The notes beneath the pieces were generated by a model. It ran no database searches, had not been told where the DNA came from, and saw only the letters and a program-made list of their open reading frames with translations. Positions 3,591 to 63,074 of a stretch of 64,000 bases of DNA are shown one piece after another (the first letter of the stretch is position 1; each line of letters opens with the position of its first letter). The DNA lies in the NCBI GenBank assembly GCA_030649205.1, contig JAUSGE010000020.1, positions 850-64,849 on the forward strand, written 5' to 3'. The translations under genes and the position numbers were made by a program. The DNA comes from a bacterium. Lineage in GTDB: Bacteria; Patescibacteriota; Patescibacteriia; Patescibacteriales; GWC2-42-12.

Positions 3591-4449
3591 ATCGCGCTAT
3601 GCGGCCGGCGCTGCCGAATAATTTCATTTTTTCAATCACCGTTTTTTCCACCGCGCCAATGGTGGGTTTTAATAAATTTCTGGGATCGGTTTCGGTTTTA
3701 TTTTTTAAACAGACCTTTATCAAGGTTTGGCAAAAAGCGATTTTCAAATCAGAGCCCGCGTTAATTATATTGACCCCTTCTTTGATCGCTTTCTTAATTT
3801 GCGAGTTGCTCACGCCCGAACTGCCATGCAAAACAAAAGGAATCTTAACGGCTTTCCTGATGGCTTTAAGCAAACTGAAAACAATCTCTTCGTTGCTATA
3901 GACGCCGTGAGCCGTGCCTACGGCCGCGGCAATGGTATCAACCTTGGTTTCGCGAACAAACCTAATCACGTCCTCCACGCTAGCCAAGGGAATATTCTCT
4001 ATTTTTCCCCTAATATCGCCGTGGCCGCCTTTAATCGCTCCCACCTCGCCTTGGACCCAAACTTTCCTGGCATGAGCCACCTTTACCACCTGCTTGGTTA
4101 AATTTATATTTTCGTCCAAAGGCAAAGACGACGCGTCAATATGCACCGAGGTAAAACCGGAGCTGATACATTCAAACACCGCGTCAAAACTCGTGCCATG
4201 ATCAAGGTGCAAAGCGATCGGCGCCGGCGCCGCCGTGTTTTTCGCCACCGTGGAGACAATATGGGTAATCGGCTTAAGGCCCATATATTTTATGGCGCTT
4301 TCGGAAACCTGGATAATGGCCGGCGAATTGGCCTTGACGGCCGCTTGCGCCACGCCCAAAATTGACTCAAAATTGGTAATATTAAAGGCACCGGCCGCGT
4401 AGCCGCCTTTTCTAGCGTTCTCAACAATATTTTTAATATGAACCAGCAT
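3583..4449 (-). CDS. fba: Class II fructose-bisphosphate aldolase family protein
   Basis: GGYAAGAFN, IIQVSE, HLDHG and FVLHGSSG motifs of the class II FBA/tagatose-bisphosphate aldolase family. Confidence 0.85.
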   Translation of the reverse strand: MLVHIKNIVENARKGGYAAGAFNITNFESILGVAQAAVKANSPAIIQVSESAIKYMGLKPITHIVSTVAKNTAAPAPIALHLDHGTSFDAVFECISSGFTSVHIDASSLPLDENINLTKQVVKVAHARKVWVQGEVGAIKGGHGDIRGKIENIPLASVEDVIRFVRETKVDTIAAAVGTAHGVYSNEEIVFSLLKAIRKAVKIPFVLHGSSGVSNSQIKKAIKEGVNIINAGSDLKIAFCQTLIKVCLKNKTETDPRNLLKPTIGAVEKTVIEKMKLFGSAGRIARYV

Positions 4450-6420: not shown

Positions 6421-6500
6421 ATAATTTCTACCCGGCTTTAGCCGGCGTTATTTTCTTTAGATAATTTCTACCCGGCTTTAGCCGGCGTTATTTTCTTTAG
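6421..6500. repeat. Perfect 40-bp tandem duplication containing the REP-like unit TTTCTACCCGGCTTTAGCCGG
   Basis: 6421..6460 and 6461..6500 are identical (ataatttctacccggctttagccggcgttattttctttag). The second copy encodes the last codons and the stop of scpB. Confidence 0.95.
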
Positions 6501-7038: not shown

Positions 7039-7154
7039 GTCATTGCGAGGAGCCGTACTCGGCGACGAAGCAATCTCACGGATAACAAATTTCTATTTAA
7101 GACTCCATATTCGTTAGATTGCTTCCCCCGGCTCAAAGCCGGGGTCGCAATGAC
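7039..7154. repeat. GTCATTGCGAGG...AAGCAATCTC / ...TCGCAATGAC foldback repeat (family 2) between scpA and scpB
   Basis: The termini gtcattgcga and tcgcaatgac are inverted, and the internal agcaatctcac / agattgcttc segments are also inverted. Related copies are at 32820, 43164 and 44147..44298. Confidence 0.85.
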
Positions 7155-7876: not shown

Positions 7877-7903
7877 GTCATTCCTGCGAAAGCAGGAATC
7901 CAG
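7877..7903. repeat. Family 1 palindromic repeat (gtcattcctgcgaaagcaggaatccag)
   Basis: Perfect short hairpin cattcctgc/gcaggaatc with the family consensus ends. Confidence 0.8.
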
Positions 7904-8001
7904 AAATAAGCTTGCATTTTATTTCTTTTTCTTGTTTTTCTTCTTGCTTGTTTTTTTAGTGCCGCAACAGCATCCGCATGACATAAGTTTATATTTAATT
8001 A

Positions 8002-12578: not shown

Positions 12579-12584
12579 TAGATT

Positions 12585-12658
12585 TTCTTTCTACCCGGCT
12601 TTAGCCGGAGTTAAAAAATCAATTGAAGATAACTGCCAGCTAAAGCTGGGTAGAAATT
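12585..12658. repeat. Inverted pair of REP-like units (family 6, TTTCTRCCCGGCTTYAGCCGG)
   Basis: ttctttctacccggctttagccgg ... ccagctaaagctgggtagaaa. Confidence 0.85.
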
Positions 12659-12661
12659 AGC

Positions 12662-16448: not shown

Positions 16449-16665
16449 GATTAATTCCTGAGTTTTACGAGCAGACATATGATTTTTAGGCTGAATTTGC
16501 CGTTAAAAAAATGGCATGTTTGAGGCCGAGGCTACTGCCGAGGCCGAGTTTGCCATTTTTAGGCAAATTCAGCTGTGCCGGAGGCAAAAATCATCCTGGA
16601 TGCGAGTAAATTCAGGAATTAATCCGTTCCACATATTTTAACTCCGGCTGAAGCCGGGTAGAAAA
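16449..16665. repeat. Foldback element, family 7 (GATTAATTCCTGA...TTCAGGAATTAATC) with a nested palindrome and a terminal REP-like unit
   Basis: Termini gattaattcctgag / ttcaggaattaatc. The inner ggctgaatttgcc...ggcaaattcagc palindrome is absent from the copy at 41941. It ends with aactccggctgaagccgggtagaaaat. Confidence 0.85.
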
Positions 16666-16672
16666 TATATTT

Positions 16673-17944: not shown

Positions 17945-17952
17945 AAACTATA

Positions 17953-18008
17953 TTTCTGCCCGGCTTTAGCCGGCGCTTAATTAACTCCGGCTAAAGCCGG
18001 GCAGAAAA
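17953..18008. repeat. Inverted pair of family 6 REP-like units between rplO and secY
   Basis: tttctgcccggctttagccgg cgcttaattaa ctccggctaaagccgggcagaaa. Confidence 0.9.
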
Positions 18009-18012
18009 AAAC

Positions 18013-18598: not shown

Positions 18599-19275
18599 GT
18601 TTCTTGGGTTTTTATTTCTTTCTTTGATAAATCAGTATTATTAATCTTTCTGTTTTCAGTCCTCTTCAGATTCCCCAGCGCCGCCATGGCGCATTTAACG
18701 TTATTAACTTTATTGCCAGTGCCTAGGATTTTAGAGGTTACATTTTTAATGCCGCTTAATTCCAAGAGAACCCTGACTGCTCCGCCGGCGATAATGCCGC
18801 GGCCTTTTTTAGCCGGTTTGAATAAAATTCTGGCCGCTCCCAGCTTTTGATAAATTTCATGCGGAATGGTTTCGTTGGTTATCGGGATGTCAAGAAAATT
18901 CTTTTTAGCTTTATTAACGGCCTTAGTCACGGCCGCGGTAACATCAGCGCCTTTAGCCAGGCCAATCGCCACCCGGCCTTTTTTATTGCCAATCGCCACG
19001 CAAGCCCTGAAGCGCATTCTTTTGCCTCCGGCCATCACGCGGGTAACGCGGGCGATATCAATCATTTTTTGTTCAAATTCTTCCGGCATGCCATCGCCTC
19101 GGCCTCGCCCGGCGCCTCGCTTGCCTTTAAAGTTTCTCTTTCTGTCTCCGCCTCTTTCCCCGCCGCGCTGATACGATCTGGCGTCAGGCATAGCCGGGGA
19201 AGCAGCATCAACTTTAGCTTCGGTTTTAGGAGCTATTTCAGGTTGCGTATTTTCTTGTATTTTTTCTTCTTCCAT
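18580..19275 (-). CDS. rpsE: 30S ribosomal protein S5 (with an N-terminal Arg/Gly-rich extension)
   Basis: VTRVMAGGKRMRFRACVAIGNKKGRVAIGLAKG and GIIAGGAVR motifs. Confidence 0.95.
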   Translation of the reverse strand: MEEEKIQENTQPEIAPKTEAKVDAASPAMPDARSYQRGGERGGDRKRNFKGKRGAGRGRGDGMPEEFEQKMIDIARVTRVMAGGKRMRFRACVAIGNKKGRVAIGLAKGADVTAAVTKAVNKAKKNFLDIPITNETIPHEIYQKLGAARILFKPAKKGRGIIAGGAVRVLLELSGIKNVTSKILGTGNKVNNVKCAMAALGNLKRTENRKINNTDLSKKEIKTQETLNPKS

Positions 19276-19298
19276 AATATTAATATTTTCAAGTATTT

Positions 19299-19483
19299 GG
19301 CTCGGCCTGGAAAAATTGTTTTTATCGCGGCTCCTCGGTGCATGCCTCGGCGCCGAAGTAGCTGAACGGGGGCGAAATTGTAGCGATTTTTTACAAAAAA
19401 TTACTTTTCTTACCTTTTAATTTTTTGTAAAAAACGCACAAATTTTCTCTTAAGCAGGAAAAACAATTTTTCCAGGCCGAGCC
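19299..19483. repeat. Long foldback element, family 9, copy 1, filling the rplR-rpsE spacer
   Basis: 25-bp perfect outer stem ggctcggcctggaaaaattgttttt/aaaaacaatttttccaggccgagcc. The core gcgaaattgtagcgattttttacaaaaaattac...ttttttgtaaaaaacgcacaaattttctcttaagcagg is shared with 62933..63074. Confidence 0.9.
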
Positions 19484-20446: not shown

Positions 20447-20461
20447 AATATTAATTATCTT

Positions 20462-20505
20462 TATCAAGTTAAAATTTAATGGCCGTAGGGCTTTGCCCGC
20501 CCGTG
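20462..20505. repeat. Partial copy of the ribosomal-operon hairpin module (family 10) upstream of rplF
   Basis: tatcaagttaaaatttaatggccgtagggctttgcccgc matches the left arm of 24782, 34489 and 35030. Confidence 0.75.
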
Positions 20506-21177: not shown

Positions 21178-21717
21178 TTATTCGTTTTTGAACGGGAACC
21201 CTAATAATTTAAAAAGTTCCAAGCCTTGTTCATAGGCCTTGGCCGTGCCGGTCAAACAGACTTGCAAGCCATGGATGTTGCCGACTTCATCGGCTTTGAT
21301 TTCCGGAAAAGCCAAATGTTCCTTAAAACCCACCGCCAAATTGCCTTGCCGATCAACTTGCCTGGGGCTAATGCCTCTGAAATCCCTGATTCTGGGAAAA
21401 GTTATTCTAACTAATTTTTCCACAAAGTCAAACATTCTTTGGCCGCGCAAAGTTACGGCCACGCCGATAACCATGCCTTTTCTGGTCTTAAAAGCGGAAA
21501 TTGATTGCTTGGCTTTTGTCAACACCGGCTTTTGTCCGCTGATTCTTTCCAGGCTGGAAGCCACGCCGTCAATAAAAGCCTTGTCCTTGGCGTTCCGGCC
21601 CACGCCCGCGTTAATTACCACCTTGGTAAGCCGAGGCACGGCCATAATATTTTTATAGCCGAATCTTAAGATTAAGGCCGGCGCTATTTCTTTTTTATAT
21701 TTTTCTCTTAAATTCAT
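21178..21717 (-). CDS. rplE: 50S ribosomal protein L5
   Basis: NIMAVPRLTKVVINAGVG and FDFVEKLVRITFPRIRDFRG. Confidence 0.95.
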   Translation of the reverse strand: MNLREKYKKEIAPALILRFGYKNIMAVPRLTKVVINAGVGRNAKDKAFIDGVASSLERISGQKPVLTKAKQSISAFKTRKGMVIGVAVTLRGQRMFDFVEKLVRITFPRIRDFRGISPRQVDRQGNLAVGFKEHLAFPEIKADEVGNIHGLQVCLTGTAKAYEQGLELFKLLGFPFKNE

Positions 21718-21753
21718 ATATATTATCTAGTTAAAATTCAATGGCCGCAGTCT

Positions 21754-22086
21754 TTAATCAATTATTTGTTTGCATTTTTTGCAGGCTCTCGCTTTCTTTT
21801 TTTTCTTTATATTATTTATCGTTGTTTCAACATATTGATGGGCGACTCTGGTCGGCCGGTCGCATTTCGGGCAGACTAAAATAACGTTTGATAAATTAAG
21901 GGGCGCGGGAAATTCAATTCTCTGGCCCTTCTCGCCCTGTTTTCTCGGCCGCATATGCTTAATTAAAAGGTTTAGGCCTTCAATACTGGCGCGGTTGGCG
22001 GACGTAAAAACTTGTAAAACTTTTCCGGTTTTACCCTTGTCTTTTCCGGTTAATATTTTAATTTTGTCGCCTGTTTTTATTTTCAT
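21754..22086 (-). CDS. rplX: 50S ribosomal protein L24 with a C-terminal CxxC...CxxC tail
   Basis: KOW motif MKIKTGDKIKILTGKDKGKTGKVLQV. The C-terminal CPKCDRPTRV...CKKCKQ looks like a zinc ribbon. Confidence 0.93.
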   Translation of the reverse strand: MKIKTGDKIKILTGKDKGKTGKVLQVFTSANRASIEGLNLLIKHMRPRKQGEKGQRIEFPAPLNLSNVILVCPKCDRPTRVAHQYVETTINNIKKKKKARACKKCKQIID

Positions 22087-22089
22087 ACT

Positions 22090-22181
22090 ACTCTTTCTGC
22101 CCGGCTTCAGCCGGCGTTATTTTCTCTTTCTGCCCGGCTTCAGCCGGCGTTATTTAACTCTGGCTAAAGCCAGGCAGAAAT
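22090..22181. repeat. Three family 6 REP-like units (two direct, one inverted) between rplN and rplX
   Basis: ctttctgcccggcttcagccggcgttatt twice, then aactctggctaaagccaggcagaaa. Confidence 0.9.
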
Positions 22182-22187
22182 AATAAA

Positions 22188-24773: not shown

Positions 24774-24781
24774 ATTTATTA

Positions 24782-24892
24782 TATCAAGTAAAAATTTAAT
24801 GGCAGTAGGACTTTGTCCGCTATTAAATTTTTACTTGATACCTTATATTTTTTGAAAATATTAAAAACTTTTTCTAAAAAAGCTGTTAAAAG
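24782..24892. repeat. Ribosomal-operon hairpin module (family 10), full copy, directly upstream of rplV
   Basis: tatcaagtaaaaatttaat...attaaatttttacttgata stem-loop plus a second hairpin aaaacttttt-ct-aaaaaagc. Near-identical to 34489..34601 and 35030..35140. Confidence 0.9.
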
Positions 24893-24894
24893 TT

Positions 24895-25209
24895 TTATTT
24901 TTTCGCCGCCGGAACTGGAGCCGGAGCCGTGCCTTTAGCCTGCTCTTTAGCCATCTTGCCGCCGTGGCTGACAAACTTTCTAGTCGGTGAAAACTCGCCT
25001 AATTTATGGCCCACCATATTTTCCACCACAAACACCGGCAAATGCAGTTTGCCATTGTGGACACCGATGGTAAAACCTACCATTTCCGGAGTAATTGTGC
25101 AAGCCCGATCCCAAACTTTAATCACGGTTTTATCGCCCGGACGCAAATTCTTAATTTTTTTAATTAGCCTGTCGTTTACGTATGGGCCTTTTTTTAAACT
25201 TCTGGACAT
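24895..25209 (-). CDS. rpsS: 30S ribosomal protein S19
   Basis: [11 protein letters not shown] and [13 protein letters not shown]. Confidence 0.97.
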
Positions 25210-26656: not shown

Positions 26657-26683
26657 GTCATTCCCGCGCAGGCGGGAATCCAG
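26657..26683. repeat. Family 1 palindromic repeat between rplD and rplW
   Basis: gtcattcccgcgcaggcgggaatccag. Confidence 0.85.
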
Positions 26684-26685
26684 AA

Positions 26686-27354
26686 TTATTTATATCTCTC
26701 CTCCAGCTTTTCCACGGCCGTTTTAGTCATCACCAAATTCTTATATTTCAATAAATCAACTAAATTAATATTATTTAAATTAATCAATTCCACCCCAGGC
26801 AGGTTCTTCGCCGAATACTTCAATTTCTCCTCCGCCTTTTCCGCGATAATCAGATAACTTCTCTTTGGCATTTTCCCGGTCGTCTGTTGTCTGTTTTCTG
26901 CCGCCTTTTCCAATCTGTCTATTATGCCATTAAAGATCTTAGTTTTAAACTCCGCCGCTTCCAGCTTATCCAAGACCGTGAGATTTTCATTGGCCGCCTT
27001 GTCCGACAGCGCCATCAAAATCGCGCTCTGCTTCATTTTCTTGTTTATTCTCATTTTAAAATTCCGCTCGTTTCTCGGGCCGAAAGTAACGCCGCCGCCA
27101 ATCCAAATCGGCGATCGGGACGAACCGTGCCTGGCTCGGCCGGTGCCTTTCTGCTTCCAGGGCTTGCGGCCGCCGCCTCTAACCTCGCTTCGATCTTTAG
27201 TATGGGCAATCACTTTTCTTTCATTCGCCATTTGCGCCACTACGGCCTGGTGTACCAGGGCCGGATTGACTTTCACGCCGAAAACCTTGTCGGAAAGTTC
27301 CATTTCTCCCACTGCTTCCGCGTTTTGATTGTAGACTTTTACTTTAAGGCTCAT
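26686..27354 (-). CDS. rplD: 50S ribosomal protein L4 (start at MSLKVKVYN)
   Basis: RGGGRKPWKQKGTGRARHGS motif. Confidence 0.95.
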   Translation of the reverse strand: MSLKVKVYNQNAEAVGEMELSDKVFGVKVNPALVHQAVVAQMANERKVIAHTKDRSEVRGGGRKPWKQKGTGRARHGSSRSPIWIGGGVTFGPRNERNFKMRINKKMKQSAILMALSDKAANENLTVLDKLEAAEFKTKIFNGIIDRLEKAAENRQQTTGKMPKRSYLIIAEKAEEKLKYSAKNLPGVELINLNNINLVDLLKYKNLVMTKTAVEKLEERYK

Positions 27355-32819: not shown

Positions 32820-32856
32820 GTCATTGCGAGCCGCGTACTCGCGGCGAAGCAATCTC
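32820..32856. repeat. Family 2 repeat half (gtcattgcgagccgcgtactcgcggcgaagcaatctc) upstream of fusA
   Basis: Same ends as 7039 and 43164. The adjacent 32771..32815 carries a C/G-run hairpin, ccccccttgtaaaggggg. Confidence 0.8.
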
Positions 32857-32883
32857 ACGCACAACAATACTTAAATTAATTTA

Positions 32884-34476: not shown

Positions 34477-34488
34477 ATTTCTTAATTA

Positions 34489-34601
34489 TATCAAGTAAAA
34501 ATTTAGTGGCCGTAGAGCTTTGCTCGCTATTAAATTTTTACTTGATACCTTATATTTTTTGAAAGTATTGAAAACTTTTTCTAAAAAAGTTTTTAAAGGT
34601 T
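34489..34601. repeat. Family 10 hairpin module, full copy, directly upstream of rpsG
   Basis: tatcaagtaaaaatttagtggccgtagagctttgctcgctattaaatttttacttgata plus the gaaaactttttctaaaaaagttttt hairpin. Confidence 0.9.
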
Positions 34602-34602
34602 A

Positions 34603-35022
34603 TTATTTCTTCGGAGTCTTAGCCCCGTACCTGCTCCTTGACTGTCTTCTGCCTTCCACGCCCTGGGTATCATAAACTCCTCTGATTATTTTATAGCGAA
34701 CGCCCGGCAAATCTTTGGTACGGCCGCCTTTAAGCATAACGATGGAATGCTCCTGCAGATTATGGCCGATGCCCGGAATATAGGCGGTAACTTCCATGCC
34801 GTTGGACAGGCGCACGCGCGCGATTTTTCTTAAAGCCGAGTTAGGCTTTTTCGGCGTGGTCGTCGTCACCTTTAAGCAGACGCCGCGCTTAAACGGCGCG
34901 CCTTTAGCCAGCACGGTTCTTTTGCGATGCAAAGTATCAAGAGTTGATTGCAAGGCCGGCGACTTAGTTTTATTTCTGCTTGAATGCCGGCCTTTCCTGA
35001 CCAGCTGATTTATGGTAGGCAT
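34603..35022 (-). CDS. rpsL: 30S ribosomal protein S12
   Basis: [12 protein letters not shown] and [11 protein letters not shown] motifs. Confidence 0.98.
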
Positions 35023-35029
35023 ATTAATT

Positions 35030-35140
35030 TATCAAGTTAAAATTTAATGGCCGTAGAGCTTTGCTCGCTATTAAATTTTTACTTGATACCTTATATTTTT
35101 TGAAAGTATTGAAAACTTTTTTGAAAAAGTTTTCAAGGGG
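35030..35140. repeat. Family 10 hairpin module, full copy, directly upstream of rpsL
   Basis: Near-identical to 34489..34601. Confidence 0.9.
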
Positions 35141-35226
35141 GTAAAAAAACAAACCCGAATATTCGGGATATAAATAAATTTAATTGCTTATTCTAATTTA
35201 ACACAAGAAATAAAAACGGTCAAGAG

Positions 35227-39908: not shown

Positions 39909-39935
39909 GTCATTGCCGCGAAGGCGGCAATCCAG
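39909..39935. repeat. Family 1 variant palindromic repeat (gtcattgccgcgaaggcggcaatccag)
   Basis: Same ends and hairpin geometry as the other family 1 copies, with compensatory stem changes. Confidence 0.8.
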
Positions 39936-39974
39936 AAAGAATTGCCTGCTTCGCGGTAATGGCTGTTTTTAAGG

Positions 39975-40284: not shown

Positions 40285-40473
40285 TTATGCCGGCTGGTTT
40301 GAACCGTCTTCATCAGCCAGCTTCTCTAATTCATCACAAGCTTTTGGCGTTATCCCCTCTTTAAAGGAGATATCGCCGCTTCTCAACAGTTCTGAAAATA
40401 TTTGCGGCTTTCTAATAGAAAACCAAATCAATACCTCCAAGCCGATCAGATATTTCTCGTCAGACTTTGCCAT
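40285..40473 (-). CDS. Hypothetical small protein, 62 aa
   Basis: AAAAGGAGGG SD 6 nt before the ATG. It has its own terminator and is preceded by a terminator/antiterminator leader. Confidence 0.6.
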   Translation of the reverse strand: MAKSDEKYLIGLEVLIWFSIRKPQIFSELLRSGDISFKEGITPKACDELEKLADEDGSNQPA

Positions 40474-40493
40474 GATGCCCTCCTTTTAATGTA

Positions 40494-40567
40494 CAAAATT
40501 TAAAAACCGTCTTGCTTTGAAGACGGTTCTGGTTAGATTATTTTATATTTATTCTTGTCTTCAAAGC
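40494..40567 (-). promoter_or_regulatory. Leader with mutually exclusive terminator and antiterminator pairings
   Basis: Terminator AACCGUCUU-CAAAGC-AAGACGGUU plus UUUUAAAUUUU (40494..40528). The upstream GCUUUGAAGAC (40557..40567) is perfectly complementary to GUCUUCAAAGC, which forms the terminator 5' arm and loop. Confidence 0.5.
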
Positions 40568-40860
40568 AAAAAATGGCCAAGAGCAATGGCCTTAATAATC
40601 GTAATAATTTTTTTGCCTTGAACTAAAAACATATGTAAATAATTATTTGGTAAATCTTGTAAGTTTTTATTTTGTCATCTTGACCGGAACTTTATAACAT
40701 TTTACAATATTTTGTAAATTTCGTTTTCCGTCCGAGATGACAAAATGAAAGATAGGTGAGGGGGAAAGAAAAATGTGTTGTGGCATTTTTCTTTCCCCCC
40801 GGCAGAATAACTTTAGGATGTTTGCCTAAGTTATTCTATAATTTCATGGCTTTTTGCGAT

Positions 40861-41061
40861 TTACATTAGTTGACTCGCGAAAAGACGGCGCTCCGCTCTC
40901 TCTCGGCGCTGTTGAATTTTCAAAAAATGAGCGTTGTCATCAAGGTCGACAAGGCCCGCCCCGCAGTCAGGACACCGCCCTTTCCTTGTATGTTTTCTTT
41001 TAGTGACGGGGCGGCCACACTCCGTCCCGTTGCGGCAAACCTTGTATGGCAACGATCCCAT
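40861..41061 (-). CDS. Hypothetical zinc-ribbon small protein, 66 aa
   Basis: CRNGTECGRP...CPDCGAGL four-Cys pattern and a basic tail. AAAGGAG lies 10 nt upstream. It overlaps the preceding ORF by 62 nt. Confidence 0.5.
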   Translation of the reverse strand: MGSLPYKVCRNGTECGRPVTKRKHTRKGRCPDCGAGLVDLDDNAHFLKIQQRRERAERRLFASQLM

Positions 41062-41236
41062 TTCTTTCTAACTCCTTTGAAGTTGTTTCCTTCTTGATTA
41101 GGCTGTAAATTTCTTCAGCTTCTATGCCCGTGATCCGCCTTTTTTTGCCGTTTGTTTGCTTAACGCAAACAATTACGGCGCAACAACCAAATTTTAAAGA
41201 AACAACCTCTTCTCCGGAATCAAGCACAAATTCCAT
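41000..41236 (-). CDS. Hypothetical small protein, 78 aa
   Basis: AAAGGAGGT SD 5 nt before the ATG. It overlaps the upstream ORF by 17 nt. Confidence 0.55.
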   Translation of the reverse strand: MEFVLDSGEEVVSLKFGCCAVIVCVKQTNGKKRRITGIEAEEIYSLIKKETTSKELERNGIVAIQGLPQRDGVWPPRH

Positions 41237-41489
41237 TTATACCTCCTTTTATCATGAAAAAATCCGCCATCTCTTGTTTTGTCTGGCAGTCCTTGACTAA
41301 CTCTCTAGTCCAGGACAGCATAGTAAAAACATGCTTCCAGTTTTCTGGCAACTTTACAAGTTGCTCCGTGCCATTAACTTTTGTTTGTACCTCTCCTTCG
41401 CCTACCGGTAACGAAGCAAATCGCGCGCGCATAATCGCACAACCGTCTGAACTGCCGTTAGGTTCGATGAAATAAAACAACTTCATCAT
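41220..41489 (-). CDS. Hypothetical small protein, 89 aa (start at MMKLFYF; the track ORF extends into repeat 41542..41680)
   Basis: AGGAGGG SD about 9 nt upstream of ATGATG. The N-terminal 39 aa of the track ORF are repeat-encoded. Confidence 0.55.
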   Translation of the reverse strand: MMKLFYFIEPNGSSDGCAIMRARFASLPVGEGEVQTKVNGTEQLVKLPENWKHVFTMLSWTRELVKDCQTKQEMADFFMIKGGINGICA

Positions 41490-41541
41490 CTTTTTACATC
41501 CCTCCTTTCTTGAGATTCTTTTAAATTTTTTAAGTTGCTTT

Positions 41542-41680
41542 CCGGAACGAAAAAGTTTGTTTTGAGCGCATACGAAATTGTAGTAATTTTTTTTAAAATT
41601 ATTCAAGTCTTCTTGTTTGAATAATTTTAAAAAAAATACACAAATTTCGTCTAAGTGAAAAACAAGCTTTTTCGTTCCGG
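41542..41680. repeat. Long foldback element, family 9, copy 2
   Basis: Outer stem ccggaacgaaaaag/ctttttcgttccgg. The core gagcgcatacgaaattgtagtaatttt...aaaattattcaagtctt...ttgaataatttt...acacaaatttcgtctaag is near-identical to 51956..52097. Confidence 0.9.
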
Positions 41681-41940: not shown

Positions 41941-42069
41941 AGGATTAATTCCTGAATTTACCAACAAACATATGATTTTTAGCCGAAAGGCAAAAATCAT
42001 CCTGGATGCGAGTAAGTTCAGGAGTTAATCCATTCCGCATATTTTAACTCCGGCTAAAGCCGGGCAGAA
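41941..42069. repeat. Foldback element, family 7, short copy, with a terminal REP-like unit
   Basis: ggattaattcctgaattt...ttcaggagttaatcc, then attccgcatattttaactccggctaaagccgggcagaaaa. Homologous to 16449..16665. Confidence 0.9.
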
Positions 42070-42095
42070 AATAATAAAAAATAATTCATCCAATC

Positions 42096-43163: not shown

Positions 43164-43278
43164 GTCATTGCGAGGAGCGCCAGCGACGAAGCAATCTCAC
43201 GAATGGCTAGTTTGGGTAAAAATTTATTGTTTGTGGGATTGTTTCGCCCCGACCAAATGCGTCGGGGCTCGCAATGAC
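43164..43278. repeat. Family 2 foldback repeat overlapping the 3' end of the ComEC-MBL gene
   Basis: gtcattgcgaggagcgccagcgacgaagcaatctcac ... gctcgcaatgac. The last approximately 24 codons of the ORF lie inside it. Confidence 0.85.
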
Positions 43279-51955: not shown

Positions 51956-52097
51956 GGCCGCGATAAAAAGCTTACTTTGAGCGCATACGAAATTGTAATA
52001 ATTTTTCTTAAAATTATTCAAGTCTTCCTTTTTGAATAATTTTAAGAAAAATACACAGATTTCGTCCTAAGCGAAAAATAAGCTTTTTATCGCGGCC
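51956..52097. repeat. Long foldback element, family 9, copy 3
   Basis: 19-bp perfect outer stem ggccgcgataaaaagctta/taagctttttatcgcggcc. The core is near-identical to 41542..41680 and in the same orientation. Confidence 0.9.
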
Positions 52098-61814: not shown

Positions 61815-62916
61815 CTAACTTGCCTGCTTGTTTTTCCTTAGCCACGCTTCCATAAAGCCTGCCAGCTCGCCGTCCAAAACCGCTTTAATATCAGAGGTTT
61901 CATAATCGGTGCGATGATCTTTAACCAGTTGGTAGGGTTGCATGACATAAGAGCGGATCTGCCGGCCCCATTCGGCTTTTTGCGCCGCGCCGCGCAGTTT
62001 CAATTCCTCGGCCTGCTTGGCGTCTTCCTGCAGTTTGAACAATTTGGCTTTTAAAATTTTTAAAGCGGTTTCACGGTTCTGGTGTTGAGACCGCTGGGTC
62101 TGGCAGGCGACCACAATGCCGGAAGGCTTATGCAGAACGCGCACCGCGGTTTCCACTTTATTGACGTTCTGGCCGCCCGCGCCCGAGGAGCGGAAAGTAT
62201 CAATTTTCAGATCACTCTCATTAATTTTCACGGCTTCGGTCTCCGGCAGTTCGGGAATCACTTCCACCAAGGCGAATGAGGTGTGGCGCATCTGCTCGGC
62301 GTCAAACGGCGAAATGCGCACTAAGCGGTGCACGCCGGACTCGCTTTTTAAATAACCGTAAGCCCAGCGGCCGCTGATATTTATGGCCACGCTTTTAATA
62401 CCGGCTTCATTACCCGTGCTTTGGTCAACAATTTCGGCGCGCCAGTCCATTTTTTCCGCGAAGCGCAAATACATGCGCTGTAAAATCTGCGCCCAGTCTT
62501 GCGCGTCCACGCCGCCGGCGCCGGCATGAATGGATAAAATGGCGTTAGCTTGATCATATTTACCGGAAAACAAAACAAAAAACTCCAGCCGCTCAAAGGA
62601 CAGCTTGAGTTCCTGATATTTTTTTTCCGCATCAGCCGCGATTGATAAATCTTGTTCTTTGGCGGCTTCAGCCGCATATTGCTCCAAGTCGGTTATTTCT
62701 TTTTTTAGATTTTCCCAAGTGGCAACTTCCTTTTCCTGATTTTCCATCTGCCGGCTGATGTTCACGGCGCGCTCGCGGTCCTGCCAGAAATCCGGCTTGG
62801 ACATTTCCACTTTCAACTCATTAACTTTTTCTTTTTGCCGGTCCAAGTCAAAGCAACCTCCAGGTATCCAGGAGCCGCTCCCGCAACTCTTCAATTTGTT
62901 TAAGTAAATTTTCCAT
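61815..62916 (-). CDS. prfB: Peptide chain release factor 2, with a programmed +1 frameshift at CTT TGA C
   Basis: Frame 0: [22 protein letters not shown] then TGA (62848..62850). The +1 frame continues [11 protein letters not shown].... SPF and GGQ ([10 protein letters not shown]) motifs are present, and a GGAGG SD-like element lies 3 nt before the CTT. Confidence 0.92.
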
Positions 62917-62932
62917 AATGTTTAATGCTCAT

Positions 62933-63074
62933 CACGGCTTCTTGCGAATTATTTTATCGCGCATAGAAAATTGTAGCAATTTTTTACAAAAAATTACTTT
63001 TTTTACCTTTTAATTTTTTGTAAAAAATGCACAAATTTTCTCTTAAGCAGGAAAATAATTCGCAAGAAGCCGTG
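62933..63074. repeat. Long foldback element, family 9, copy 4, between htrA and prfB
   Basis: 23-bp perfect outer stem cacggcttcttgcgaattatttt/aaaataattcgcaagaagccgtg, with a core shared with 19299..19483. Confidence 0.9.

Follow-up and report, generated by a model that had tools for sequence, protein, structure and literature searches.

A family of palindromic intergenic repeats in Patescibacteria with a conserved centre and rapidly diverging base stems

The 64,000-nucleotide stretch of a patescibacterial contig analysed here (JAUSGE010000020.1, positions 850 to 64,849, assembly GCA_030649205.1; hereafter the window) contains four long foldback elements, members of a repeat family that is real and widespread in Patescibacteria and that appears to be undescribed. 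The repeat unit is the whole hairpin, including a base stem of ~23 bp whose outer sequence diverges strongly between copies while its two arms stay near-perfectly paired. Our preferred explanation, held with somewhat more confidence than doubt, is that these elements form a structure-defined family of palindromic interspersed repeats, closest to REPINs and miniature inverted-repeat transposable elements (MITEs), in which the base stem is intrinsic to the element and its arms are kept paired by a DNA-level process. The kind of element is familiar, namely palindromic interspersed intergenic repeats, but the architecture is unusual: a conserved centre, a length-constrained, GC-clamped stem free in sequence, no conserved ends and no target duplication.

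An original prediction, made from the letters of the window, had described four foldbacks in one shared orientation with a common core and two subtypes that differ in their inner hairpins. All four were found where it had placed them; copies 1 and 4 share one type of inner hairpin and copies 2 and 3 another, and the 3' core motif occurs four times in the window against 0.73 expected. A covariance model of the family (described below) matches only these four copies in the window, with E-values of 1e-13 to 1e-27. Their features are listed here with the model scores.

19299-19483, plus strand: copy 1, subtype A1, damaged, in the rplR-rpsE spacer and antisense to the operon
19299-19323 and 19459-19483: base-stem arms of copy 1, 25 bp, perfectly paired
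19330-19373, plus strand: GC-rich insertion inside copy 1, 42-44 nt, taking the place of CATAnn in the 5' internal loop
19436-19454: 3' core of copy 1, GCACAAATTTTCTCTTAAG
41542-41680, plus strand: copy 2, subtype B, with the ndk terminator on one side and a 92-aa minus-strand open reading frame (ORF) on the other, 128.8 bits
41542-41563 and 41659-41680: base-stem arms of copy 2, 22 bp, one G·T
41564-41582 and 41638-41656: core halves of copy 2
51956-52097, plus strand: copy 3, subtype B, between convergent genes, a prkA-like gene (plus) and a CARDB surface protein gene (minus), 118 bits
51956-51978 and 52075-52097: base-stem arms of copy 3, 23 bp, one C·A
62933-63074, plus strand: copy 4, subtype A1, intact, between the htrA stop (63094) and the prfB start (~62919) and antisense to both, 133.7 bits
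62933-62955 and 63052-63074: base-stem arms of copy 4, 23 bp, perfectly paired
62956-62976: 5' loop and middle stem of copy 4, ATCGCGCATAGAAAATTGTAG
62977-63028: inner hairpin of copy 4
63029-63047: 3' core of copy 4

On either strand, copies 2-4 each form one long hairpin, with folding energies of -53 to -67 kcal/mol (z -10.8 to -13.4) unmatched by any of 200 shuffled sequences; copy 1 also forms one hairpin when folded within a 204-nt stretch. Across the family the unit measures about 123-158 bp. Its base stem has arms of 23.5 ± 2.2 bp (22-26 bp in 26 of 33 arms) and a graded composition, with 59% GC in the outer 10 bp, 11% in the inner 12 bp and 31% in the flanks. Above this stem lies a junction of ATC/AGG or GA/GA, then a 2-bp G-C/C-G clamp and a conserved asymmetric internal loop in which GCAT(A) stands opposite (A)TCTAA (loop motifs GCGCATA and TCTAAG). 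The middle stem comprises 8-10 bp with a bulge (nnAAATTGT / ACAAATTTnn; AAATTGTA / CACAAATTT), and its outer two pairs covary cleanly (TG/CA, CG/CG, TA/TA, CA/TG, GA/TC). The unit is capped by an inner hairpin of 14-21 bp, found as subtypes A1, A2 (AT-rich loops) and B; the A1 loop consensus TTAC-TTTTCTTACC-TnTTAA is alike across metagenome-assembled genomes (MAGs).

One of three accounts that had been offered for the perfectly complementary stems was that a single long hairpin is maintained by covariation, and as a description of the pattern this holds. The covariance model was built from 26 copies, and pairing and covariation statistics were taken from a model-based alignment of 34 copies and 37 pairs. 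In this alignment, which is fitted to the model structure and therefore leans towards it, standard pairs fill 97.1% of pair cells (77.2% in shuffles, at most 57% with partners slid), both-sided changes occur at 26 of the 37 pairs, and the covariation score is 0.567 against 0.16. An independent MAFFT/RNAalifold run recovers the same helices, with compensation at 21 of the 37 pairs.

The outer stems had also been described as perfectly paired within each copy and unrelated in sequence between copies. The first part stands, with a single G·T in copy 2 and a single C·A in copy 3; the second does not. The inner ~12 bp of the stem, AAAWTTRTTTT, are kept in all 33 copies examined, and information per position decays gradually outward from the junction, from ~2 bits to ~0.1 bits, with 0.07-0.35 bits at the outermost arm positions. 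Stem positions 13-19 retain a consensus, CGGCTYGGGGAAAATTATTTT in many copies and CAGTTCAGAAAATTATTTT in a second group, and the tips share the weak consensus CGGCTYGG, with a fuller sub-consensus CGGCTYGG-GAAAATTATTTT. Moreover, the stems of copies 1 and 4 can be derived from the consensus by block changes (CGGC-C-TGG-AAAAATTG and CGGCTT-CTTGC-GAATTA). Because a family consensus decays along the stem in this way, and because the stems of copies 1 and 4 can be derived from it, the stem is a homologous, fast-diverging part of the element rather than foreign DNA. The stems are thus intrinsic and evolve in concert, rather than being drawn from the target, which largely solves the puzzle that the original prediction had raised about them.

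To compare orthologous spacers, relatives were fetched via S5 and HtrA homologues; the S5 and HtrA proteins of the window are 79-88% identical to those of Falkowbacteria-like Patescibacteria MAGs. Compared contigs are labelled L plus a number, L029, L032 and L035 being relatives and L041 the same strain as the window. Three spacers were informative. Between tuf and rpsJ, the element is present in L029 and missing from L035, L032 and the window; a terminator followed by TTATAATGT is common to all four genomes, a longer TTATAATGTATATTT is found in three, and the empty sites are AT-rich only, with nothing like the L029 tip CCCAGTTCGAG or its complement. Downstream of secY, the L035 copy sits between the stop codon and an intact canonical terminator, and L032 and L029 have the terminator without the element. 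The rplR-rpsE spacer holds copy 1 in the window, a different hairpin module in L029, and short unrelated hairpins in L032 and L035. As relatives differ in which of these spacers carry a copy, copies are gained and lost. The htrA-prfB spacer is rearranged and lacks the element in the closest HtrA relative (88% identity, L037-L040); the one contig of the same strain, L041, does carry the element.

These orthologous empty sites indicate that the base stem is neither a pre-existing hairpin split by the element nor an inverted copy of its flank. Both origins had been put forward in the original prediction, and at the ~80% ribosomal-protein identity of the genomes that supply the empty sites, both are disfavoured. 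According to the former, the element inserts into the loop of a terminator or a small REP-like hairpin, and the outer stem is target DNA. Potential targets are plentiful: small GC-rich intergenic hairpins are abundant, with CGGCTNNAGCCG occurring 12 times in the window against 0.1 expected, several tips open with CCGGCT and close with AGCCGG, and elements often lie close behind stop codons. However, the empty orthologous sites hold no such hairpin, the L035 terminator is intact beside its element, the stems of copies 1-4 lack a following T-run and nothing resembling a terminator was detected at copies 2 and 4. CGGCTNNAGCCG hairpins are also rare in other element-bearing genomes (7 matches in 36 loci), and neither the narrow range of stem lengths nor the gradual decay of conservation would be expected from assorted targets. 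We regard this origin as very unlikely. The CCGGCTnnAGCCGG hairpins were considered separately as an insertion target and rejected, being abundant only in the window genome.

According to the latter, each insertion duplicates its flank in inverted form, for example by fold-back priming that extends the palindrome outward. Perfect, copy-specific stems and the lack of direct target duplications would fit such a process, and palindrome extension by template switching is mechanistically possible (PMC8794818). Nevertheless, GC-rich tips (59%) stand in AT-rich flanks (31%), the L029 tip has no counterpart in three empty orthologous spacers, the tips share a family consensus within arms of constrained length, and the arms never run into neighbouring coding sequence. 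We give this origin scarcely any credence.

The means by which the arms stay paired was approached by counting mismatches in the outer and inner stems of 27 unique copies, an A·C on the motif strand being a G·T on the other. Of the outer-stem positions, 606 are Watson-Crick; G·T on the motif strand accounts for 14, A·C for 6, transversion mismatches for 2 and gaps for 3. In the inner stems, Watson-Crick pairing holds at 501 positions, and the exceptions are 1 G·T and 2 A·C. Wobble pairs amount to ~3%, and their strand asymmetry (14 vs 6 outer, 1 vs 2 inner) is not significant, so it was discarded as a guide to the strand that folds. In the tip helix, 156 changes are double-sided and 10 single-sided, and most columns feature all four Watson-Crick types (e.g. 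CG:11 and GC:11); swaps of the CG/GC type, which are transversions, cannot pass through a wobble intermediate.

Closely related copies offer a second line of evidence. The 88-nt core of copies 1 and 4 is 97% identical, and the TCTCTTAAG variant is confined to these two among the copies in hand; despite this, whole blocks of nucleotides differ between their stems, with perfect compensation from arm to arm. Two copies on L024 share 57 identical central nucleotides and have divergent stems, divergence rising from ~14% in the loops and middle stem to ~25% in the inner part of the base stem, with unrelated tips. Copy 1 is itself a damaged copy. Its insertion, which is unique to it, forms its own small hairpin and has no second copy in the window, has removed the near-invariant GCGCATA motif (G[C/T]G[C/A]ATA is present in all 33 other copies) and accounts for a model score of only 72 bits. 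Copy 1 keeps its perfect 25-bp stem despite this loss.

The few wobbles, the double-sided swaps, the block-compensated sister stems and the perfect stem of damaged copy 1 together suggest that the arms probably co-evolve via a DNA-level process such as intra-hairpin template switching. Such switching is documented to perfect the imperfect inverted repeats of quasipalindromes (PMC7202029) and to compensate several bases at once, in a single event (PMC8794818). Stems that are perfect yet divergent, like those described here, match what it would produce, although switching is a mutational mechanism rather than an element family, and is read here from the pattern of substitutions. On our preferred explanation, the base stem would be required to span approximately two helical turns, to carry a GC clamp and to be paired, its sequence being free. 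Template switching or repair within the hairpin during replication would copy a change from arm to arm in a single event; since one arm is rewritten from the other, stems could drift fast and yet stay near-perfect palindromes. Part of the pattern could also come from gene conversion of cores among copies, or from copies that arose recently and whose stems then changed rapidly.

By comparison, selection at the RNA level alone fits these data poorly, given the scarcity of G·U pairs (~3%), the lack of significant strand asymmetry, the many transversion-type swaps and the perfect stem of a damaged copy. An RNA function for the host would take the form of a cis-acting signal for mRNA processing or stability, or of a small RNA cut out of operon transcripts at the base stem, with only the pairing of that stem under selection; ribosomal RNAs are freed from flanking processing stems in a similar way. 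We consider this possible, if rather doubtful. Copies always occupy places that are likely to be transcribed (5' untranslated regions, intra-operon spacers, and the interval between stop codon and terminator), their orientation relative to genes is biased ~27:3, the basal duplex of ~23 bp is about two turns of A-form helix, the core and inner loop are conserved across distant MAGs, and covariation is massive. Set against this, the slight excess of G·T (14 vs 6) falls on the strand opposite to the one usually present in mRNA, copy positions are not conserved among relatives, several copies of two subtypes occur within 64 kb, and no Rfam family matches.

The orientation bias is clearest among copies flanked by co-directional genes: in ~27 of 30 the GCGCATA strand is antisense to the genes, the exceptions being the copies of L007, L035 and L010 (at 3914), and a few copies lie between convergent or divergent genes. 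Copies are placed 2-20 nt past a stop codon and 12-30 nt ahead of the next start; the L029 copy lies in the S10-operon leader and the L035 copy ahead of a terminator. Since the hairpin is nearly symmetric, the bias must act on the asymmetric loops, and it could do so either at the RNA level or, at the replication fork, on single-stranded DNA.

Within the window, Pfam matches identify the neighbours as L18 and S5 (copy 1), NDK (copy 2), a PrkA-like kinase and CARDB (copy 3), and HtrA and RF-2 (copy 4), which confirms the predicted location of copy 4 between htrA and prfB. Copy 1 does lie in the rplR-rpsE spacer but, contrary to what had been claimed, does not fill it exactly: 2 nt separate it from rplR and 23 nt from rpsE. 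Beside copy 3, the prkA-like gene has its own terminator and the CARDB gene stops 7 nt off. All genes adjoining copies in the window, except prkA, are on the minus strand, so in any operon transcript the motif appears as the reverse complement of its originally written form. That copies 1 and 4 are transcribed, as this complement, is a reasonable inference from their positions.

Three other roles for the element were examined and rejected. An intrinsic terminator would require a T-run, of which there is none at copies 1-4, and in L035 a separate canonical terminator follows the element. Promoter-like sequences on the gene-sense strand (TACAAT or TTGCTA-17-TAAAAT) are no commoner than in shuffles, and their boxes are not conserved between subtypes. 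Sense-strand mini-ORFs, as read from the sequences, have conserved neither start codons nor frames.

Several observations concern the annotation of genes around the copies. Mechanically called ORFs cross copy 2 (41220-41606, minus) and copy 1 (18847-19365, plus), and the true start of the 92-aa gene to the left of copy 2 is probably ~41498, behind GGAGGG. The small ORFs at 40285-41500 have no Pfam match. The RF-2 gene (61815-62919, minus) is split between two frames, which is the usual programmed +1 frameshift of prfB; the listed ORF starts at 62894 and the N-terminus lies at ~62919.

To gauge the distribution of the family, an exact pattern, GCGCATANNAAATTGTA-N40-70-CACANATTT, was scanned against public sequence collections. 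Among GTDB species genomes it matched six contigs, five of which were counted as genuine MAG contigs; the matches comprise Patescibacteria, Parcubacteria and Saccharibacteria MAGs and one MAG labelled Gammaproteobacteria, a label that is unverified. Metagenomes yielded 22 contigs, one of which (L013) is a chance match. The covariance model recovered the copies from the exact scan and eight more in the fetched DNA, for about 30 copies beyond the window overall. Scanning IMG/VR with the core pattern gave no match, and the stem tips of copies 1 and 4 have no exact match there; a phage origin is unsupported by these scans. No Rfam 15 family is matched at gathering threshold, where only tRNAs pass in the window, and under permissive settings the sole matches are generic models of long hairpins (miRNA precursors), whose scores of 10-39 bits lie far below their thresholds of 80-249. 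Literature searches on palindromic repeats of the candidate phyla radiation found nothing relevant.

Our preferred explanation would have the element spread in trans by an enzyme that recognizes the folded core rather than terminal sequences, a step to which the data point weakly. Recognition of the core would account for the unconserved termini, the absence of target duplications and the strong orientation bias. Inspection by eye of 33 pairs of flanks revealed neither a conserved motif nor a target duplication, and together with the unconserved termini this argues against a DDE-type MITE; by analogy with REP/RAYT, IS200/IS605 or attC/IntI, a core-recognizing, structure-specific enzyme would fit better. 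The family does share several features of MITEs, being short, non-coding, multi-copy (four copies in 64 kb) and present or absent at orthologous sites, and lacks conserved terminal inverted repeats and direct target-site duplications. After insertion, the element would be co-transcribed with its flanking genes, mostly as the complement of the GCGCATA strand, and the transcript would fold into a ~60-bp RNA rod, a plausible site for RNase III or for stabilization of mRNA ends. Correia, ERIC and REP elements serve as such sites. In one contig, a truncated 3' half of a subtype-B copy (AATTTCGTCTTAAGCGAGAAAAAG..., L001:2419-2457) abuts a full copy, which suggests a nested insertion or a partial deletion.

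Several points weigh against this explanation. We infer template switching at these stems from the pattern of changes, and co-transcription from position. Core conservation across distant MAGs, which extends to the inner-hairpin loop (TTACC), fits a host function equally well. The orientation bias can be assigned neither to transcription nor to replication, whose contributions are inseparable because gene and replication direction are confounded here. All empty sites belong to genomes of ~80% protein identity rather than to strain-level relatives. Finally, no Y1 transposase was found in the 371 kb examined, where a weak test, tblastn with an IS200 TnpA query, gave nothing better than E = 0.6. 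The same 371 kb contains no separated half-cores, which would be a sign of an autonomous element.

The closest known counterparts are the REP/REPIN elements mobilized by RAYT (HUH/Y1) transposases, which are likewise short, non-coding, multi-copy intergenic palindromes that form one long hairpin with compensatory pairing and leave no target duplications. A GTAG precedes the hairpin in REP elements, and GTAG (sometimes GTAA or GTAT) precedes the inner hairpin here, a resemblance that may be a lead. REPINs, however, feature two conserved REPs at their distal ends and a variable middle, whereas the present element is one asymmetric hairpin with a conserved centre, the conserved part lying midway along each arm and the variable part at the base. 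The weak tblastn search with IS200 TnpA found no RAYT-like gene in the 371 kb. Correia (CREE/NEMIS) elements of Neisseria and the ERIC/IRU elements of enterobacteria are similarly hairpin repeats of ~100-155 bp in transcribed intergenic regions, including operons, and are co-transcribed, as the present copies would be judging from position. Both undergo processing by RNase III or RNase E with effects on mRNA stability, which in ERIC depend on orientation. The present family differs from Correia elements, which are bounded by conserved terminal inverted repeats of 26 bp and duplicate a TA target, and from ERIC elements, whose entire length is conserved.

Integron attC sites are recognized by their structure plus a few unpaired bases, and their stems vary between copies. 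The element resembles them in that recognition seemingly depends on structure and a few unpaired or bulged bases with stem sequence free, and a stem of ~23 bp would also suit a precursor of duplex guide RNAs; it might accordingly be a structure-recognized single-stranded DNA recombination site or such a precursor. We find either highly improbable. The R and L boxes of attC are conserved at the hairpin base and the tip varies, the reverse of the present arrangement, in which the base is the least conserved part and the conserved part lies mid-hairpin. Moreover, attC sites occur in cassette arrays next to intI, whereas these copies are single and scattered among housekeeping genes such as those for ribosomal proteins, prfB, htrA, ndk and secY. 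As to guides, comparison of the tips of copies 1 and 4 with the rest of the window gave no convincing match, IMG/VR contains no exact one, and tips across the family carry a consensus, unlike acquired spacers.

A more speculative reading, which we think improbable, is that of a structure-defined unit with a ~23-bp "ruler". A core-binding enzyme would cut or copy at a fixed distance from the internal loops, whatever the sequence there, and one arm would be re-synthesized from the other at each copying event; in a variant, RNase III-type processing of the ~23-bp duplex would yield defined small duplex RNAs. If the former were true, the family would represent a mobile element that lacks ends defined by sequence and has its termini rewritten into perfect palindromes.

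Although the genomes of Patescibacteria are very small, they accommodate 140-bp hairpins inside a ribosomal-protein operon and other essential operons. The family offers a test case for how hairpins stay paired, by template switching in DNA or by selection in RNA, and for how a repeat spreads without sequence-defined termini; the concerted evolution of its stems and its strong orientation bias are features worth testing further. There are practical consequences as well. L041, a Logan contig of the same strain from a public short-read assembly, ends in the loop of copy 4, an instance of how such palindromes fragment assemblies, and gene callers put spurious ORFs across the elements. Together with the other repeat families of the window, these foldbacks point to an unannotated layer of intergenic hairpin elements in a large uncultured radiation.

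Those other families are diverse. Small GC-rich hairpins of the type TTTCTGCCCGGCTTTAGCCGGCG lie at 6421-6500, 12584-12660, 16638-16668, 17949-18011, 22090-22184 and 42044-42074; some stand alone, others are in tandem or in REPIN-like inverted pairs, and the rplO-secY spacer is among their locations. This family, which includes the CGGCTNNAGCCG hairpins, is scarce in the other MAG loci. An 86-nt direct repeat, 93% identical between 16582-16667 and 41988-42073, ends in a small CCGGCT hairpin and may be the shared 5' end of two paralogous genes. A module of ~125 nt with the hairpin ATCAAGTAAAAATTTAATGGC...GCYATTAAATTTTTACTTGAT occurs at 24775-24901, 34482-34608 and 35023-35149, with partial copies at 20450-20500 and 21712-21762 and a further copy at L029:9882-10000. 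Its end falls ~10 nt short of minus-strand start codons, in the relative L029 it fills the spacer between rplR and rpsE, and it may serve as a promoter or leader cassette present in several copies. A third hairpin family, GTCATTCCnGCGnnnGCnGGAATCCAGAA, is found at 7877-7908, 26657-26688 and 39909-39940, and similar units directly adjoin the foldback element in two other MAGs (L004, ~4240-4270; L005, ~2036-2075). The repeat GCGACGAAGCAATCTCACG occurs three times in the window (7062-7092, 32841-32871 and 43183-43213), and its reverse complement adjoins the right flank of the foldback copy at 1986-2127 in the metagenome contig L010.

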